DNA from: Patescibacteria group bacterium
GTDB lineage: Bacteria; Patescibacteriota; Microgenomatia; UBA12405
Direction of reading: 5' to 3'
Length of the DNA stretch: 48,022 bases
Assembly: GCA_050943115.1 (NCBI GenBank)
Contig: JBMNON010000001.1
Span: 1 to 48,022, forward strand
Shown: positions 20,747 to 32,752 of the stretch, piece by piece
Numbering within the stretch: position 1 is the stretch's first letter
Layout: the number at the start of each line of letters is the position of its first letter
The notes under the pieces: generated by a model
Told to the model about the DNA's origin: nothing
Databases searched by the model: none
The model's input: the letters and a program-made list of their open reading frames with translations, nothing else
Position numbers and translations under genes: made by a program

Positions 20747-20951
20747 GCCTTCTTGAATTTTTAGATCTCTTGCGGCATCTTTCTTTCCACAAGATTATTT
20801 TTTTCTTAGCGTATCTATCTTCAGAAGGTTTAGAATAAGCAGTCCTCTTTTTTACCTCTTCAGTAATATCTTCCTCAAGACAAAGCCGTCGGAATTTACC
20901 GATAACATCATCTTTACTTTCGCCTTTTTTCTTCTTAACGATTATGGGCAT
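20736..20951 (-). CDS. rpsU: 30S ribosomal protein S21
   Basis: GESKDDVIGKFRR, YSKPS; rpsU-yqeY synteny. Confidence 0.88.
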   Translation of the reverse strand: MPIIVKKKKGESKDDVIGKFRRLCLEEDITEEVKKRTAYSKPSEDRYAKKKIILWKERCRKRSKNSRRHAA

Positions 20952-27776: not shown

Positions 27777-28694
27777 TTAAACTCCGGCTGCTTTAATAGC
27801 CCTACCCACTTCTTCCACAATCAGATTGACACTCTTAACACTGTCGTCATTTGCAGGTATTGGGTAATCCACCTTCTCCGGATTACTATCGGTATCGACC
27901 AATGCCACCACCTTTATGCCCCGCAAGCGAGCCTCCCTAACGGCTGTTTTTTCAAATCCGGCGTCAACAACAAACAGAATATCAAACATTTTGTCCAAAT
28001 TAACCAAACCGCCGACATTCCTTTCCAGCCTCCCGATTTCTTTCTTGGTGTCGGACAATTCCTTTTTAGTCAAATCGGAAAAAGTACCGGCCTCAATACC
28101 CTGCTTTAAATCTTTCAATCTTTTAATATTTTTTCTAATCTCTTCCCAATTGGTAATAGTCCCACCCAACCATCTGTCGGTAACATACGCTACCTGGGCA
28201 TCTTCGGCCACTCTCTTTACCACTTCCCGGGCTTGTCTTTTGGTGCCTACCATTAAAACCTGCTTACCGTTTCTTTTGGCATTATATATATAGTTGCAGG
28301 CTTTTTCCAATTCATTTATGGAATTGGTTAAATCCAATATTTCTACGCCATCCTTTGATGTATAGATATAATCTCTGGCTTTCGGATGAGTCTTGGCAAC
28401 TTTATGGCCCAAATGCGAACCGGCAGCAAGCATGTCTTTCATATCAATCGTCAGGTCATACTTTTTATCCGGCTTCTGTTGTACTTCAACTGCCCCAATT
28501 TCCTCAACTGATGTTTTTTCGCTGATTTCCTTTTTAGCTCTTTCCTTTTTAGCTTTTACCTCTTCATTAAGCTTCTTCACTTGCTCGGTATTTACCCTGG
28601 ACTGTTTCTTAGAATTAACTACTAAAGCTTTCTTTACCAAACTTTTACCGGTTCGGTTGACGGTTTTATTTATTGTTTTCTTTTTTTCTTCCAT
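27777..28694 (-). CDS. rpsB: 30S ribosomal protein S2 with N-terminal extension
   Basis: AGSHLGH, VGTKRQA, RWLGGTITN, DTDSNP, PANDD. Confidence 0.96.
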   Translation of the reverse strand: MEEKKKTINKTVNRTGKSLVKKALVVNSKKQSRVNTEQVKKLNEEVKAKKERAKKEISEKTSVEEIGAVEVQQKPDKKYDLTIDMKDMLAAGSHLGHKVAKTHPKARDYIYTSKDGVEILDLTNSINELEKACNYIYNAKRNGKQVLMVGTKRQAREVVKRVAEDAQVAYVTDRWLGGTITNWEEIRKNIKRLKDLKQGIEAGTFSDLTKKELSDTKKEIGRLERNVGGLVNLDKMFDILFVVDAGFEKTAVREARLRGIKVVALVDTDSNPEKVDYPIPANDDSVKSVNLIVEEVGRAIKAAGV

Positions 28695-28790: not shown

Positions 28791-29033
28791 TTAGTCCCTG
28801 GACCCTCTGCCGTTGTGTTTACTATCTTTCCTCTCAAACCGTGGTTGTATCTCTACCTCATACCGGGTATTGAGTAAGTTGGCAATCCCCGGCCCGGGTT
28901 CCACATAAGCAGTCCGCCCGTTTATCGTTACGATATGGCCCTGGTCAAAGGTTCCGTCAGGAAATAAACCCTTTGGTTTTGGTCTGTCTGAAAAATCTAT
29001 ACCGGTTAATGGTGCCTTCTCTTTAACTGTCAT
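28791..29033 (-). CDS. Small hypothetical protein
   Basis: 80-aa ORF with TTGACA-16nt-TAAGAT promoter ending 8 nt before the ATG. Confidence 0.6.
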   Translation of the reverse strand: MTVKEKAPLTGIDFSDRPKPKGLFPDGTFDQGHIVTINGRTAYVEPGPGIANLLNTRYEVEIQPRFERKDSKHNGRGSRD

Positions 29034-29079
29034 CTATAAAAATCTTAATTTTTATTTTTTAGTTGTCAATTAATTAAAA

Positions 29080-29550
29080 AACAACCCAGGAAAAAAGAGA
29101 AAATATGAAAATACTAATGCCTTCTTCCAAAGAGGCGCTGTTCGCTGCTGCTCCCAGCGCCCCTTCTTGCTGTCAGTTCTGCGATGCCCGGTAGTCGGCA
29201 CCCGGATCGTCTGGAAGAGCCACCTTCCCGGTTTCCTCGTCCACCCGACGGGTCTCAATGCTGCCACAAAACGAAACATACTTGGGCCCAAGGCACCTGG
29301 ACATCTTCTCCGGAGTCGGTGTGCAACACCCTACAAGCTTATAGTGGCATTCGTTGCAATGGCAAGGCTGAACACACATCGTATTCCTCCATGGGGGGGT
29401 GAGAGTAAAAGTTCTACCTGAAGCGATGGCCGGACATGACTGCCCCTATGGTGGTAGCATGGCAATAATTCTCCTTTCAAATTAGGGTCACAACAAACCA
29501 ATAACATTGATCTCTTGTGACCCTAATTGTTCCTGGGTTGTTAATGTGCT
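29080..29550 (-). other. Structured RNA cassette A (boxA-like motif plus terminal stem enclosing a small mRNA)
   Basis: 13-bp IR 29080-29092/29530-29542; 14-bp hairpin 29480-29493/29515-29528; 11-bp hairpin 29130-29140/29155-29165; AGCACATTAACAAC at the 5' end. Confidence 0.7.
29173..29379 (-). CDS. Small Cys-rich protein (68 aa, 8 Cys; CxxCxY...CxGP)
   Basis: GGAGG SD (29386-29390) 6 nt before ATG; motif shared with the cassette B peptide. Confidence 0.65.
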   Translation of the reverse strand: MCVQPCHCNECHYKLVGCCTPTPEKMSRCLGPKYVSFCGSIETRRVDEETGKVALPDDPGADYRASQN

Positions 29551-29650
29551 CTTACCAAAGACTTAAAAACTAGCATTTTAGTTTTGTCTTATAGCAAGTT
29601 TTTATTTCTATTAAAAACTAGCTTCAAATTACTAAAACTACTTTTTAATA

Positions 29651-30112
29651 GACAACCCGAAAGAAAAAAGAATAGAAAAGAAAGTGTAAAGCGCGAAACA
29701 AAGACGAATATTGCTTAATAAGCAACGGGCAGGGAGCCGCAAACGGCACTGTTCTGGCCCCCTGCCATTTATGGTTATCTTCTAGGATCGCGGCCTTGGT
29801 CTTGGTCGTCCAGCCCGCCTCTTCGGAGTCTTCTCCGGCGACTTATCGCCCATTGGCTTTCCCCAACCGCTGACCCTTGATGAAAGGTCCTCTGCACTTC
29901 TTCTTGTCACAGTTCCCACGATAGATGCATGACTTGCACTTTCCCGGCATGGTATGGTTCCTTTCATGTCATGTGTCTTCACAGTTGACTGACATATGGC
30001 TCTGACCGATAGACACAAGCAATCGGATCACCTCCTTCCTATTTTGGGATACGAAGAAAACATAAATACTATATTCTCTTCGTATCCCAATCTTTCGGGT
30101 TGTCAAAGTGCT
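29651..30112 (-). other. Structured RNA cassette B (same architecture as cassette A)
   Basis: 14-bp IR 29651-29664/30091-30104; 14-bp hairpin 30044-30057/30077-30090; 11-bp hairpin 29728-29738/29756-29766; AGCACTTTGACAAC at the 5' end. Confidence 0.7.
29843..29950 (-). CDS. Small Cys-rich peptide (35 aa, MPGKCKSCIYRGNCDKKKCRGPFIKGQRLGKANGR), below the ORF-track cutoff
   Basis: Hand translation; GAAAGGA SD upstream; CxxCxY..GxC..CxGP shared with 29173-29379. Confidence 0.6.
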   Translation of the reverse strand: MPGKCKSCIYRGNCDKKKCRGPFIKGQRLGKANGR

Positions 30113-30173
30113 TTTTGAAGGCTTACAAAAAAATGCTGATATCTTTTGATATCCTTCAAAATATTATGGGATT

Positions 30174-30201
30174 ATTGTATCAACAATTATATAATTATCA
30201 A
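30174..30201 (-). promoter_or_regulatory. Sigma70-type promoter driving the cassettes
   Basis: TTGATA (30201-30196), 16 nt, TACAAT (30179-30174) with extended -10 TG. Confidence 0.6.
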
Positions 30202-30409
30202 GTGATTGTTTTATAGGATATTTACTCAATTCTAGCCGCAAAAAAACTTCTTTCCTACAGGAACACTTCGTCAAAAACCTTAACACTATAAGTCTTACTA
30301 GTTCCATATGCGATACTACACCAATATGTATCACTTTGCAATAAGTAAATGTATGCTTGTTAACCTACCTACTCCCCCATTTACAGCCATTTAATGTAAA
30401 ATATAGTCA

Positions 30410-32752
30410 ATGTCGCTTGAGATTAAAAATAACCTATCGATACTCCAAATTCGCTTACCGCAAGACAATGAATTTACCCTCGAAGCCATGTCCTCACTTC
30501 TTAGCAACTTCAGCCAGTCCGGTTCGGTTTCCCTTACCGACCGTCTCAAGGGCTACCGTAAAACTATAGCCAGTTTGGAAATTGTACTCATGGAAGGTCA
30601 AATCTATTTTTTTGTGGTCGCTCCCCAAGAAAGCATGGAATATGTCCGTTCCCAAATCTTAGCCCAGTACCCCACCGCCATCACCCGTGACACTGCTGAT
30701 TATTTTGCAAAAATCGACAATCTTAAAAGTTTAAACTTTGCCCAACTCGGCCTTGCAAAATCTTATAGCTACCCCGTAAAAACCGCCAGAGACTTTCGTG
30801 ACACTGACCCCTTGGTTTCTGTTCTGGCTCCCCTCTCCCGTTCCAACACCAAGGATGATTTCTTTATTTATCAAATAGTTTTGGGTCCTGCCCATAAAAA
30901 TTGGCAGGGACCAATAATGGATATAATTCAAAACGGCATTGTCATCGATAAAGAAAAAGGTCTGCGCCAAGCCCACCCCGACCGTTCTATCTTTGAACAA
31001 AAAATTCAGTTCCCAGGCATTTTGGCTCAGATTAATCTCGTTTCCAGCAACCCCAACCTGGTTGCTTCAGTTTCCTCATCTTACGGCGCTTTTACTTCTC
31101 CCCGTGGTAATTCGCTAAAAACCTTCCCCCCTGGCCTCTTTAATCGCTCCAAGCTCCCCGACTGTATCATCAATCGCAAGATCAGTACCAAGCTAAAAAC
31201 TCAGATCTTAAATACTGAAGAAGTATCAGCCCTCTGGCACTTCCCTAACAAGCTCACCAAACTTCCCAATATCGCTTGGGGTAAGAACCTTTTTTCCGAT
31301 CCTCCCGAAAACCTCCCTGTCGCCGACAACGCCACTGAAGAAGAAAAGAAAAATATCACCTTTTATGCCAAAACTGAGTTCAGAAACAAAGATTCCATTT
31401 TCGGCATCAAACAGGGCGAAGACCGCCGCCGCCACATGTACATTATCGGTAAATCAGGTACCGGTAAAACTACCCTCATTGCCAATATGGCCATTGACGA
31501 CATCAGAAAAGGCCGAGGCGTCGCCGTCATTGATCCTCACGGCGATCTTTGCAACAACATCCTAGATTACATCCCCAGCAACCGAGTCAATGACTGCTGC
31601 TACTTTAATCCCGCCGATCCGGAATATGTCTACCCCCTCAATGTTCTTGAAGCCCAAAACGACTCCCAAAAAGAACTGGTTGCCTCAGGCGTAATTTCCA
31701 TCTTCAAAAAAATTTACGGGGAAGTTTCCTGGGGCCCACGGCTTGAGCATATCTTAAGAAATGCCGTTCTCACCCTGGTCAATACCCCCAACACTACCCT
31801 GGTTGATATCGTCGAAATCCTAACCAACAAAAATTTCCGGGAAAAAGTTATTGCCCACCTGAATAACCAAACCTTGAAAAATTTCTGGATCAACGAATTC
31901 AATCGTATGGAACCAAGGTTCCAAAACGAAGCTGTCGCTCCTATTCTCAACAAGGTCGGCCAGTTTATTGCCTCCACCAATATCCGAAATACCATCGACC
32001 ATCCCAAATCAAAAATCAATATCCAACAAATAATGGATGAAAAGAAAATCTTAATTGCCGATCTTTCCACTGGAAAACTTGGGGAAGACAACTCTGCCCT
32101 TCTTGGTGCCATGTTGATCACCCAAATCCAGCTTTCTGCCATGAACCGTGTTTTCCAGGAAGCCGAAGCCCGCTCTGATTTCTATCTTTACGTTGATGAG
32201 TTCCAAAACTTTGCTACCACCTCCTTTATAAAAATTCTTTCAGAAGCCCGTAAATTCAAACTCAACCTGATTGTCGCCAACCAGTACATGGCCCAGCTTG
32301 AGCGCCCCATCCAAGATGCCATCTTTGGCAATGTCGGTTCTATCGCTTCATTTGTCGTTGGCAATCAGGATGCTTTCATTTTAAGCAAAGAATTTGGTCC
32401 TCAATTCCCCCCTGAAGACCTCGTTAAAATTGGTCGCTATCAAGTAATTAATAAGCTATCTATAGACTCTGAAACCACTAACCCCTTTTACGCCTACACC
32501 CTACCTCCTCTGTCCTGTAAAAACCAGGGCCGTGACAAACTGATCAAAACCTCTCGAGAGCGCTGGGGTAAAACAAAGGATAATTTTAAAAAAAACCCCT
32601 CTCAGCCCCAACCCACGCAAAAGTCCCAAGAATCCCAGTCAAATCCAACCCCTCCCAAAAAAAACCCTCAGGTCAAAACTGTAATTAATCCGGAAAAAGA
32701 GAAAACCACTCCTCCCCCAACCGCAACCAGTCGTCGTACTTCTATAGAATAG
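30410..32752 (+). CDS. VirD4/TraG/VirB4-like P-loop ATPase (type IV secretion coupling-protein-like)
   Basis: DRRRHMYIIGKSGTGKT, VIDPHGD, LYVDEFQNF, SEARKF, ANQY, GNVG. Confidence 0.85.
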   Translation: MSLEIKNNLSILQIRLPQDNEFTLEAMSSLLSNFSQSGSVSLTDRLKGYRKTIASLEIVLMEGQIYFFVVAPQESMEYVRSQILAQYPTAITRDTADYFAKIDNLKSLNFAQLGLAKSYSYPVKTARDFRDTDPLVSVLAPLSRSNTKDDFFIYQIVLGPAHKNWQGPIMDIIQNGIVIDKEKGLRQAHPDRSIFEQKIQFPGILAQINLVSSNPNLVASVSSSYGAFTSPRGNSLKTFPPGLFNRSKLPDCIINRKISTKLKTQILNTEEVSALWHFPNKLTKLPNIAWGKNLFSDPPENLPVADNATEEEKKNITFYAKTEFRNKDSIFGIKQGEDRRRHMYIIGKSGTGKTTLIANMAIDDIRKGRGVAVIDPHGDLCNNILDYIPSNRVNDCCYFNPADPEYVYPLNVLEAQNDSQKELVASGVISIFKKIYGEVSWGPRLEHILRNAVLTLVNTPNTTLVDIVEILTNKNFREKVIAHLNNQTLKNFWINEFNRMEPRFQNEAVAPILNKVGQFIASTNIRNTIDHPKSKINIQQIMDEKKILIADLSTGKLGEDNSALLGAMLITQIQLSAMNRVFQEAEARSDFYLYVDEFQNFATTSFIKILSEARKFKLNLIVANQYMAQLERPIQDAIFGNVGSIASFVVGNQDAFILSKEFGPQFPPEDLVKIGRYQVINKLSIDSETTNPFYAYTLPPLSCKNQGRDKLIKTSRERWGKTKDNFKKNPSQPQPTQKSQESQSNPTPPKKNPQVKTVINPEKEKTTPPPTATSRRTSIE

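Follow-up and report, generated by a model that had tools for sequence, protein, structure and literature searches.

In Halobacterium salinarum, the brz-brb operon encodes a small zinc-finger protein, Brz, together with a small basic protein, Brb (PMC2253796, PMC3184054). Zinc-finger micro-proteins carrying two C(P)XCG motifs have been described in Haloferax volcanii (PMC11241148, PMC10716476), where some of the proteins predicted to be zinc fingers do not bind zinc (PMC11241148). Two mRNAs of Bacillus subtilis are the closest described counterparts in RNA design. The hbs mRNA, which encodes a small basic protein, combines a 14-bp interaction between its 5' and 3' untranslated regions with a structured leader and a strong Shine-Dalgarno sequence, and the pairing controls the access of ribonuclease (PMC5737220). 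The yrzI (spyTA) mRNA owes its stability to a structured 3' end and to a Shine-Dalgarno sequence of exceptional strength (PMC12067863).

The window analysed here is a stretch of 48,022 nt from the genome of an uncultured ultra-small bacterium (contig JBMNON010000001.1). On its minus strand lie two tandem, self-contained small-gene units, unit A at 29080-29549 and unit B at 29651-30111, both GC-rich within AT-rich DNA and both bounded by inverted repeats. Our reading is that the units carry real micro-protein genes within a conserved RNA frame at a resident locus, and that the micro-proteins bind metal and nucleic acid. We give this whole account a probability of about 0.45. That the genes are real, that the RNA frame exists and that the locus is resident is very probable, while the function of the micro-proteins is put forward tentatively. 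The features are as follows.

29080-29092, minus strand: closing helix of unit A, 3' arm; a T run follows
29130-29165, minus strand: GC-rich 3' hairpin of unit A (inverted repeat)
29173-29379, minus strand: gene A, 68-aa Cys-rich micro-protein with an acidic C-terminal part (ORF translation)
29480-29528, minus strand: leader hairpin of unit A (inverted repeat)
29530-29549, minus strand: conserved 5' box (GCACATTAACAACCC) and 5' arm of unit A (inverted repeat, fold)
29651-29664, minus strand: closing helix of unit B, 3' arm; a T-rich stretch follows
29728-29767, minus strand: GC-rich 3' hairpin of unit B (sequence and predicted fold)
29782-29853, minus strand: gene B2, polybasic peptide of 23 aa rich in Pro and Arg; its ATG lies within the end of B1, the two ORFs sharing 11 nt
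29843-29950, minus strand: gene B1, 35-aa Cys4 micro-protein (C5, C8, C14, C19), net basic (ORF translation)
30025-30039, minus strand: purine-rich tract resembling a Shine-Dalgarno sequence (AAGGAGGTGATCC in the sense direction), some 75 nt upstream of the start of B1
30044-30090, minus strand: leader hairpin of unit B (inverted repeat, covarying in the alignment)
30091-30104, minus strand: 5' arm of the closing helix of unit B, 14 nt, 100% complementary to 29651-29664
30097-30111, minus strand: conserved 5' box (GCACTTTGACAACCC) of unit B; in covariance model R1 it forms the invariant 5' portion
30174-30201, minus strand: candidate promoter of unit B, sigma-70-like (TTGATA-16-TACAAT, the second hexamer preceded by TG), scoring 10/12
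30410-32752, plus strand: divergently transcribed gene for a TraD/VirD4-like ATPase (Pfam TrwB_AAD_bind, 1.9e-8; DUF87)

An earlier note on this DNA had described A and B1 as cysteine-rich micro-proteins of 68 and 35 aa on the minus strand, and its placement of both, at 29173-29379 and 29843-29950, agrees with our translations, as do the residues that it quoted. Gene A has an in-frame homologue in genome G001 of the same genus, with 30/68 residues identical (44% protein identity); the differences fall 27/29/46 on the three codon positions, with pN 0.40 and a saturated pS of 0.86. A second homologue was found in genome G091, which belongs to another genus, and the A family is present in 3/104 genomes of the bacterial family. 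A contains eight cysteines and its G001 homologue seven, and C8, C11, C18, C19 and C29 are invariant in the three homologues. B1 shares 22/35 residues with its homologue in G002 (dN/dS 0.26), and its four cysteines and one glycine are invariant across five relatives. For B2, 20/23 residues are identical in G002, with codon-position differences of 4/2/10 and dN/dS of 0.05. Four core cysteines are kept in the A homologues (G001, G091) and in the B1 homologue (G002). The earlier note would have been contradicted if the homologous units had lost these reading frames or the Cys pattern. Both are preserved in the same-genus homologues, and A and B1 are therefore genuine coding genes. Judged by this conservation, A, B1 and B2 are real, conserved genes. 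B1 and B2 were both missing from the list of open reading frames on which the earlier note was based, and B2, the better conserved of the two, was overlooked there.

None of the three proteins matched a known protein family, a solved structure or a confident fold. Searches of Pfam, NCBIfam and PDB sequences with A, B1 and B2 gave no matches, and profiles built from alignments of 15 and 6 members gave none among PDB sequences at E values up to 10. For A, a word-based search of 5.8 billion proteins yielded no candidate, the ESM Atlas returned unnamed clusters only (scores of 0.84 or below), and a profile search of 1.84 billion representative proteins added only two further clusters to the A family. 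The sole match to A in a metagenome scan, L090, was rejected as due to chance: it consists of a VDEETGKV stretch within a 666-aa ORF and is not a relative. The AlphaFold2 model of A was unusable (pLDDT 47.8), and that of B1 was poor (pLDDT 64.9) and returned nothing from the PDB with Foldseek.

Read from the translations, the motifs CxxCxY(K/R), G-x-C and CxGP are present in both A and B1, as the earlier note had it. The two genes also occupy equivalent positions, their start codons lying 171 nt (A) and 162 nt (B1) from the start of the conserved box, and each has a Shine-Dalgarno sequence of its own, GGAGG 7 nt upstream of the ATG of A and a weaker AAAGGAA in front of B1. The note had further called the two proteins paralogous. 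In favour of this, a comparison of the A-family and B1-family profiles (hhalign) aligns exactly CxxCxY..C..CxGP, with P = 0.003 and a probability of 10%. Against it, tblastn of protein A over the whole genome matched neither B1 nor any further copy of the A gene, so that paralogy rests on the motif and the weak profile match. Common descent of A and B1 is, on these sequence comparisons, plausible but unproven. Membership of both in a larger group of Cys-rich micro-proteins, defined by C-x2-C-x5-7-C plus a fourth Cys, is supported. The C-x2-C-x5-7-C core is invariant in 15/15 aligned cargo proteins from 12 genomes. Among 30 closed units it occurs in the sense direction in 16 and in the antisense direction in none, with 0.8 expected from shuffles. 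Twenty of the 30 contain a K/R-rich stretch, and core and stretch are found together in 11. K/R-rich peptides like B2 also occur in other genera, and there a polybasic peptide has as its partner a Cys4 protein bearing an acidic tail.

The genes are set in an RNA frame that recurs in the lineage. A covariance model of the 5' box and leader hairpin (R1) detected the leader in 33/104 family genomes and in 15/29 genera. The 13-nt box pattern by itself performed no better than a reversed control outside the genus, and specificity was reached only with box and hairpin modelled together; the exact box occurs in just two copies in the genome. In a nine-sequence alignment, 15/20 pairs of the leader hairpin show compensatory changes, and one pair is G-U in 8/9 sequences. 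The stems of the unit A leader hairpin are almost identical to those in G001 with a different loop, and its 3' hairpin is 97% identical over 32 nt, though the intervening ORF keeps only 44% protein identity. The 3' flank of unit B is likewise kept in a G001 unit with different cargo (71% match from 29764). The closing helices are 13-14 bp long and in 27/31 units tested are stronger than in all 30 shuffles. Their arm sequences differ between units and change together, with two compensatory changes between the unit A helix and its G001 orthologue. The two units have fold z-scores of -4.8 and -7.6. MFE and centroid predictions alike contain the closing helix, and in unit B the 5' arm is paired in both. 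In the predicted fold of unit B the AAGGAGGTGATCC tract pairs with a 3' pyrimidine tract; no conserved ORF was seen after it (read by eye). The start codons are predicted to be unpaired, with values of 0.96 for A and 0.73 for B1 the mean being 0.35. The contig carries, at another place, a third unit built in this way, whose product is a hydrophobic peptide of 39 aa.

This design resembles that of hbs in having a long-range helix between the untranslated regions, which is kept in relatives, together with a structured 5' leader. Unlike in hbs, the helix closes the whole unit directly behind the conserved box, the whole mRNA is GC-rich and folded, and many genes of a single lineage share the design. 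With yrzI (spyTA) the units share several micro-ORFs on one mRNA, a strong Shine-Dalgarno-like tract and a structured 3' end; the yrzI peptides are a toxin and its antidote, and the likeness here is one of RNA design with no known sequence relation. Each unit is very probably transcribed into a GC-rich, heavily folded mRNA whose 5' box is predicted to pair with its 3' end, and in which box, covarying leader hairpin and purine-rich Shine-Dalgarno-like tract follow one another. By analogy with the two B. subtilis mRNAs, end pairing, structured leader and strong ribosome-binding tract would together keep ribonucleases from the mRNA and leave its true start codons open.

Around this frame the coding inserts change fast. 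In G001 the place of B is occupied by three other micro-ORFs, and in G002 the place of A by an unrelated 65-aa ORF. One 45-aa cargo protein of G001 contains CPRC...CTRC and matches Pfam DZR weakly (E 0.013). The surroundings are more constant. The TraD-like ATPase gene, which also matches an NCBIfam TraD subfamily (5.3e-13, below the cut-off of that model), adjoins the unit in 23/30 fetched loci. Here some 300 bp (30112-30409) separate it from unit B, and the first 330 residues of its product have no Pfam match. The rpsB-tsf-frr genes, which adjoin the units here, are less regular neighbours: rpsB is adjacent in only 7/30 loci. The earlier note had spoken of the two units as cassettes. In a mobile sense this view is not supported: the units occupy one syntenic locus across genera, no tyrosine recombinase is encoded on the contig, and the inverted repeats covary and contain G-U pairs in the manner of RNA helices. 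The locus is resident, not mobile, and its coding inserts change fast within a conserved RNA frame.

As to function, we suggest that A and B1 are cytoplasmic micro-proteins that each bind one metal ion, most likely zinc, with the cysteines of C-x2-C-x5-7-C and the fourth Cys as putative ligands. Together with the polybasic peptide they may act as small nucleic-acid-binding factors, for which the divergent TraD-like ATPase gene would be the obvious candidate target. The brz-brb operon offers the nearest parallel: one transcript encodes a very small Cys-motif protein and a very small basic protein, and just as that pair adjoins the gene regulated, the units here adjoin the TraD-like gene, their candidate target. 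Unlike the archaeal pair, A and B1 have one CxxC and two single cysteines instead of CPxCG-type pairs, and unit A has no basic partner; the likeness is one of design. The Haloferax volcanii micro-proteins are similar in that they are shorter than 70 aa, have four metal-ligand cysteines as the main recognisable feature, and have mostly unknown roles. They differ in motif: two CxxC pairs of the C(P)XCG type are found there, and here a single CxxC with single cysteines, in the form C-x2-C-x5-7-C plus a fourth Cys. Since some predicted zinc fingers proved not to bind zinc (PMC11241148), zinc binding by A and B1 cannot be assumed. The fast turnover of the cargo also sits awkwardly with a conserved regulatory role. 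A substitute for HU was considered and dropped; a HU gene is present in the genome, and the peptides are therefore no obvious HU substitute.

Other explanations concern either the frame or its cargo. Were the units mobile cassettes of an integron- or MITE-like kind, their inverted repeats would be recombination or transposition ends, and it is true that each unit is a GC-rich, repeat-bounded segment in AT-rich DNA and that close relatives hold different cargo in the same place. However, one locus is used across genera, the arms vary between units yet stay complementary, their G-U pairs work only as sense-strand RNA, and the conserved box is one-sided, lying upstream of the 5' arm. Integron gene cassettes have an attC site with GTTRRRY cores at the boundary and an IntI integrase with attI nearby. 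The genome encodes two tyrosine recombinases, both elsewhere (contigs C11 and C12), and the GTTRRRY core is not visible at the unit ends (read by eye). No second A gene was detected by tblastn, and the box is confined to its two exact copies. Mobility in this sense is extremely improbable. A structured non-coding RNA that carries the function, with incidental ORFs, would account for the strong fold z-scores and for the fact that the ORFs have diverged more between G000 and G001 than the leader and 3' hairpins have. But the ORFs are under purifying selection, with an excess of third-position changes and dN/dS of 0.05-0.26, and the Cys core is strand-specific and enriched (16/30 versus 0/30). 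Moreover, at gathering score and at E values up to 1, Rfam gave only tRNAs elsewhere in the window and, to the hairpin, chance hits of a microRNA-like kind. We consider an RNA without meaningful ORFs very improbable.

With the cargo itself, toxin/antidote modules on a very stable mRNA, as in yrzI (spyTA) or in hok-like type I systems, are an unlikely but arguable alternative, in which a harmful peptide, perhaps the polybasic one, would be neutralised by a co-encoded partner. Several micro-ORFs per mRNA with overlapping stop and start codons, the pairing in other genera of a polybasic peptide with an acidic-tailed Cys4 protein, the fast-changing, patchily distributed cargo and the hydrophobic peptide of the third unit all speak for it, as does the combination of 5'/3' fold-back and very strong Shine-Dalgarno-like tract (compare the yrzI mRNA, PMC12067863). 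It is opposed by the fact that A stands alone in its unit, that B1 and B2 are both basic and form no acid-base pair, that A, B1 and B2 are hydrophilic and charged, not small hydrophobic proteins like type I toxins, that the start codons are predicted to be open and not sequestered despite the fold-back helix, and that the locus is syntenic across 15 genera, not scattered. The earlier note had offered disulfide-bonded effector peptides as its second option, that is, exported cationic peptides with antimicrobial or host-directed activity. In its favour, B1 combines small size with many cysteines and a strongly cationic character, B2 is rich in Pro and Arg, the rapid turnover of sequence would suit an arms race, and a type IV coupling-protein-like ATPase gene is adjacent. 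Yet the translations of A, B1 and B2 show neither an N-terminal hydrophobic signal nor a leader, and the change from eight cysteines in A to seven in its G001 homologue fits fixed disulfide pairs poorly. The note had itself remarked on the absence of a radical-SAM maturase, and this was borne out: none of the seven radical SAM matches in the genome lies in the window (nearest C43:54806), which contains no maturase gene, and peptidase C39, the leader-peptidase exporter expected near a RiPP precursor, is absent from the genome (97% complete). Exported effectors are improbable. Fe-S micro-proteins, acting like WhiB as redox or NO sensors, would explain the C-x4-9-C-x2-C-x5-C arrangement in relatives from other genera, C-Xn-C-X2-C-X5-C being the motif spacing of WhiB-like clusters, and a relative in G084 matches Pfam Whib (PF02467) over residues 10-36 with E 0.04. 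Only 1/15 members matches, with 14.9 bits against a cut-off of 23.6, and the matches to eight further, unrelated families are just as weak; neither A nor B1 nor any close homologue of theirs matches Whib, and a profile of the C-x4-9-C-x2-C-x5-C subfamily found no PDB sequence at E up to 10. The fourth Cys of B1 lies downstream of the core and not upstream, and A has x6 between its second and third ligands where the WhiB-type spacing is x5. Wbl proteins have a basic DNA-binding tail, unlike the proteins here, whose tails are acidic or short. We give this explanation little chance. Lineage-specific ribosome-associated micro-proteins, in the manner of the very small zinc-binding and polybasic ribosomal proteins, remain. 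The units adjoin rpsB-tsf-frr, their mRNA design suggests stability and high output, and the composition of A, B1 and B2 presumably resembles that of very small ribosomal proteins. However, there were no ribosomal matches in Pfam or NCBIfam, canonical bL36 (C5:7909) and bL34 (C31:57540) are encoded elsewhere in the genome, congeneric genomes replace the cargo by unrelated ORFs, which is unexpected for parts of the ribosome, and rpsB is so seldom the neighbour (7/30 loci). This makes a ribosomal role a slim prospect. A weak bS21-like match was noted at C43:20799.

A different use of the resident frame may also be imagined, although we think it improbable: a lineage-wide expression platform whose conserved flanks serve as homology arms for the exchange of fast-evolving micro-protein sets between strains, with peptides that partner the TraD/VirD4-like coupling ATPase. 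The Cys4 and polybasic peptides would then be DNA-coating or pilot peptides, or substrates of the ATPase. Arg-rich tails are typical type IV export signals. Should this be true, the peptides would be a kind of micro-protein not described before, acting as partners of a DNA-translocation machine in ultra-small bacteria. If the preferred reading of metal- and nucleic-acid-binding micro-proteins in an RNA frame is true, it would add a new family of four-Cys metal proteins paired with polybasic peptides, and a natural case of bacterial mRNAs that are end-paired and highly folded and that serve as a reusable frame for genes; if it is false, three real genes and an RNA motif are still added to the annotation of this lineage. 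Micro-proteins are mostly overlooked in the genomes of uncultured bacteria. Here the conserved RNA leader serves as a beacon, a single covariance model leading to dozens of unannotated micro-ORF sets in 33/104 related genomes.

A hint of expression comes from metatranscriptome contigs of four studies. Over the 1701 nt examined, these fall only on 29258-29473 and 29665-30035. They cover B1 and, for gene A, 29258-29379. The contigs end just 3' of the leader hairpins, in unit B at 30024-30035 in four studies, which is the only hint that pairing may modulate cleavage by RNase Y or RNase J, as in mRNAs of the hbs type. Being assembled contigs, they do not give strand or transcript ends and may include DNA carry-over; that they leave the box, hairpins, arms, spacers and an 80-aa ORF uncovered is not evidence of absence. 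Since the box, hairpin and arms lie outside the contigs, the closing helix in the mature RNA is a prediction. Promoter-like sites such as the candidate at 30174-30201 are as numerous in the region as in shuffles. Reading the relatives by eye, we found TTGATA/TTGACA-N16-17-TAxxAT about 75 nt upstream of the box.

The earlier note had proposed two micro-protein genes, A and B1, and both were recovered at exactly its coordinates; the shared CxxCxY(K/R), G-x-C and CxGP elements were confirmed in the translations. Their equivalent positions were also borne out, with start codons lying 171 nt (A) and 162 nt (B1) behind the start of a conserved box. A further ORF, B2, was absent from that account; its start ATG overlaps the end and stop codon of B1. 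The features are as follows.

29173-29379, minus strand: A, Cys-rich ORF of 68 aa in unit A (29080-29549)
29843-29950, minus strand: B1, Cys4 ORF of 35 aa in unit B (29651-30111)
29782-29853 including stop, minus strand: B2, polybasic Pro/Arg-rich ORF of 23 aa in unit B, MGDKSPEKTPKRRAGRPRPRPRS
29535-29549 (unit A) and 30097-30111 (unit B), minus strand: conserved box, kept in relatives

A, B1 and B2 are three real micro-protein genes. The locus is present in two genomes of the same genus, G001 and G002. The A homologue in G001 has 71 aa with 30 of 68 residues identical, codon-position differences of 27/29/46, and pN of 0.40 with pS of 0.86 (saturated). In G002, the B1 homologue (38 aa) shares 22 of 35 residues at a dN/dS of 0.26; B2 is better conserved than B1 (20/23 identical, codon-position differences 4/2/10, dN/dS 0.05). 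Within the B2 stretch ...RRAGRPRPRPR there is an AT-hook-like GRP core. A third A homologue was found in G091, a genome of a second genus. With a profile of these three members, A was detected in only 3 of the 104 family genomes and in two clusters among 1.84 billion representative proteins, and a word-based search of 5.8 billion proteins with A gave no match.

A and B1 had also been described as paralogues. With A as the tblastn query, B1 was not detected. When the A family was compared with a five-member B1-type family by hhalign, the alignment consisted of exactly the motif noticed earlier (P 0.003), but with a probability of only 10%. The stronger argument comes from a wider set: 12 genomes contribute 15 cargo proteins in which C-x2-C-x5-7-C is invariant. 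In the B1 type the fourth Cys is found downstream of this core, as part of C-x-G-P; a subfamily of six members whose C-terminal tail is acidic has it upstream. A combines both features. A and B1 are read as probable distant relatives.

Read on the minus strand, each unit consists of the box, a 5' arm, a hairpin of about 21 bp, a purine-rich Shine-Dalgarno-like tract, a spacer of about 100 nt, the ORF(s), a GC-rich 3' hairpin, a pyrimidine tract and a 3' arm followed by T's. The box reads GCAC(A/T)TT(A/G)ACAACCC in units A and B. The purine tract of unit B is AAGGAGGTGATCC, 13 nt of which are presumably complementary to the 3' end of 16S rRNA. The closing arms are 13-14 nt long (in A, 16 nt at 94%); their sequence varies between units while complementarity is kept, and two compensatory changes separate the arms of unit A from those of its G001 orthologue. 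In a nine-sequence alignment of the leader hairpin, compensatory changes occur in 15 of 20 pairs, and a G-U pair persists in 8 of the 9 sequences, a pattern that fits an RNA on the sense strand. The fold z against shuffles is −4.8 for unit A and −7.6 for unit B, with the closing helix in both the MFE and centroid structures of each. Because complementary arms differ between units, the hairpin covaries and the folds are strong, the repeats are regarded as RNA helices. In the predicted fold, pairing joins the purine tract to the pyrimidine tract on the 3' side, and the start codons stay largely open, with unpaired values of 0.96 (A) and 0.73 (B1) where the mean is 0.35. A search of the units against Rfam matched no family. 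The units represent a conserved, covarying RNA frame at a resident syntenic locus.

With relatives included, the one-sided box reads G(C/T)(A/T)C(T/A)TT(A/G)A(C/T)AA(C/G)C; it is placed directly upstream of the 5' arm and partly within it, and recurs throughout the family as well as in three genomes from other families. It may be a protein or processing site, or else belong to the transcript start. With its −10 hexamer ending at 30174, a promoter-like TTGATA-16-TACAAT is located some 65 nt upstream of the unit B box, which starts at 30111. Relatives have similar sites in front of their boxes. Promoter-like sites are as numerous in the region as in shuffles.

The genome around the window is 1.05 Mb at 41% GC, and the window lies on contig C43. 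The stretch flanked by rpsB (27777-28694, minus) and the gene for a 780-aa ATPase (30410-32752, plus) contains one 80-aa ORF and, set in AT-rich DNA, two GC-rich islands; topA and dprA follow the ATPase gene. In Pfam the ATPase matches TrwB_AAD_bind and DUF87, and its match to the NCBIfam TraD subfamily is below cut-off. A homologue of it adjoins the unit in 23 of 30 loci; rpsB does so in 7 of them. R1, a covariance model of box plus leader hairpin, matches 33 of 104 family genomes in 15 of 29 genera, frequently as tandem pairs. Because of this distribution within the family and the synteny, the locus is old and resident. In an even sample of the class, R1 matched 6 of 151 genomes, three of them outside the family; downstream frames there encode large proteins of 193, 360 and 331 aa, the first two with a hydrophobic N-terminal stretch and the last behind the weakest closing helix.

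From 54 rows we retained 41 full-length sense R1 matches (E up to 6.9e-4), 36 of them in fetched loci, and called a unit closed at a closing-helix score of at least 27. This threshold was reached in 30/36 units, and the helix was better than all 30 shuffles in 27 of the 31 with enough downstream DNA. A Cys-core frame occurs in 16/30 closed units on the sense strand and in 0/30 antisense, with 0.8 expected from 200 mononucleotide shuffles per unit. A K/R-rich stretch was found in 20/30 and both in 11/30; the K/R-rich peptides resemble B2, with patterns such as M..KSP..K..KRRA. In some genera a third recurrent cargo type of about 65-74 aa, with a pattern like Y.W.D....PDPNWT.EEA.KRG, follows the Cys and basic ORFs (loci L061 of G087, L062 of G081 and L065 of G080).

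The coding insert changes while the RNA frame stays, as seen from replacements in both same-genus genomes and from an RNA breakpoint. At the unit B place of G001 the upstream region and box are kept (91% over 150 nt), as is the 3' untranslated part from window 29764 onward (71%), and the interior carries three other micro-ORFs: 19 aa, a polybasic 22 aa and a 45-aa CPRC...CTRC protein. At the unit A place, G002 has an unrelated 65-aa ORF within a similar frame (locus L055, 1685-1879), which by eye resembles the third cargo type. An RNA contig of metatranscriptome run X15 matches 29665-29769 in the 3' untranslated part of unit B before passing into 153 nt of unlike sequence; the divergence starts just downstream of the B2 stop, at the same breakpoint as in G001. 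It seems that a strain with different cargo in the unit B frame is expressed in that sample.

Contigs assembled from four metatranscriptome runs of four studies covered just two parts of the 1701 nt compared, 29258-29473 in unit A and 29665-30035 in unit B, which hints at expression, the contigs being strand-blind and DNA possible in such libraries. Three runs carry the variant 29865 A>G, which would change B1 Leu29 to Ser (codon read by eye); G002 has Ser at this position. In unit B the contigs of all four studies stop inside the purine tract, at 30024-30035, immediately 3' of the leader hairpin, and in unit A those of two of the studies stop at 29459 and 29473, likewise immediately 3' of the hairpin. 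These ends could come from processing, the 5' end being protected by a ribosome, or from a stop of reverse transcriptase at the hairpin.

Pfam and NCBIfam gave no match for A, B1 or B2, nor did PDB sequence searches with profiles including A and B1. The AlphaFold2 models have pLDDT values of 47.8 (A) and 64.9 (B1), and a Foldseek search with the B1 model gave no hit. Outside this locus the genome encodes HU, bL36 and bL34. The Cys4 proteins may bind metal, most likely zinc, and together with the polybasic peptide they may act on nucleic acid. The nearest described parallel is Halobacterium Brz/Brb, a small zinc-finger and a small basic protein co-transcribed beside their target gene (PMC3184054). 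The RNA frame would most likely confer stability. [quoted passage not shown] Among the best-ranked literature matches none dealt with Cys-rich small proteins or micro-proteins of the candidate phyla radiation. This window contributes a conserved leader made of box and hairpin, a cargo of micro-ORFs that pairs Cys4 with polybasic products, and a constant location next to the TraD-like gene.

Six other explanations were weighed. A peptide toxin/antidote module has the best odds among them, followed by exported cationic peptides; A, B1 and B2 lack a hydrophobic N-terminus in translation, no peptidase C39 is encoded in the genome, and the window holds no radical SAM gene, as had been stated. Fe-S sensors rank third, and the Pfam Whib model weakly matches one of the 15 members, a relative (E 0.04). 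Less likely still are ribosome-associated micro-proteins (bL36 and bL34 have their genes at other places), and then a purely RNA function, to be set beside the sense-strand Cys-core frames. Least likely are mobile cassettes (the units had been called cassettes). Against them stand the RNA-helix features of the repeats and the same syntenic locus, and the genome's two tyrosine recombinase genes are both on contigs other than C43. The reading of the units as folded mRNAs at a resident locus is preferred.

Several further observations were made. The 80-aa ORF (28791-29033, minus), directly downstream of unit A, is conserved at 44% and 41% identity in the two genomes of the genus and had no match in Pfam or NCBIfam. 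Between the end of a promoter-like TTGACA-16-TAAGAT (29042-29069; 10/12) and the ATG of this ORF there are 9 nt, so that the transcript may be almost leaderless. The N-terminal ~330 residues of the ATPase (30410-31400, plus) are 45-81% identical across the family's loci, yet have no Pfam match. At 20799-20939 (minus) lies a weak bS21 match (E 3.6e-4, 20.7 bits, below cut-off), the sole one in the genome. A third unit of this design, with box GTTCTTTGACAACC, leader hairpin, 3' hairpin and a 13-nt closing helix, is found about 28 kb past the window end (C43:76064-76359, plus) and encodes a strongly hydrophobic 39-aa peptide of type I toxin-like composition. Finally, a box-like scan brought up, unrelated to the units, a perfect AT-rich inverted repeat of 20-21 nt (TTAATAATTATTAATGTTTT) flanking a 1977-bp segment on another contig (C48:41605-43586), which could be invertible or mobile.
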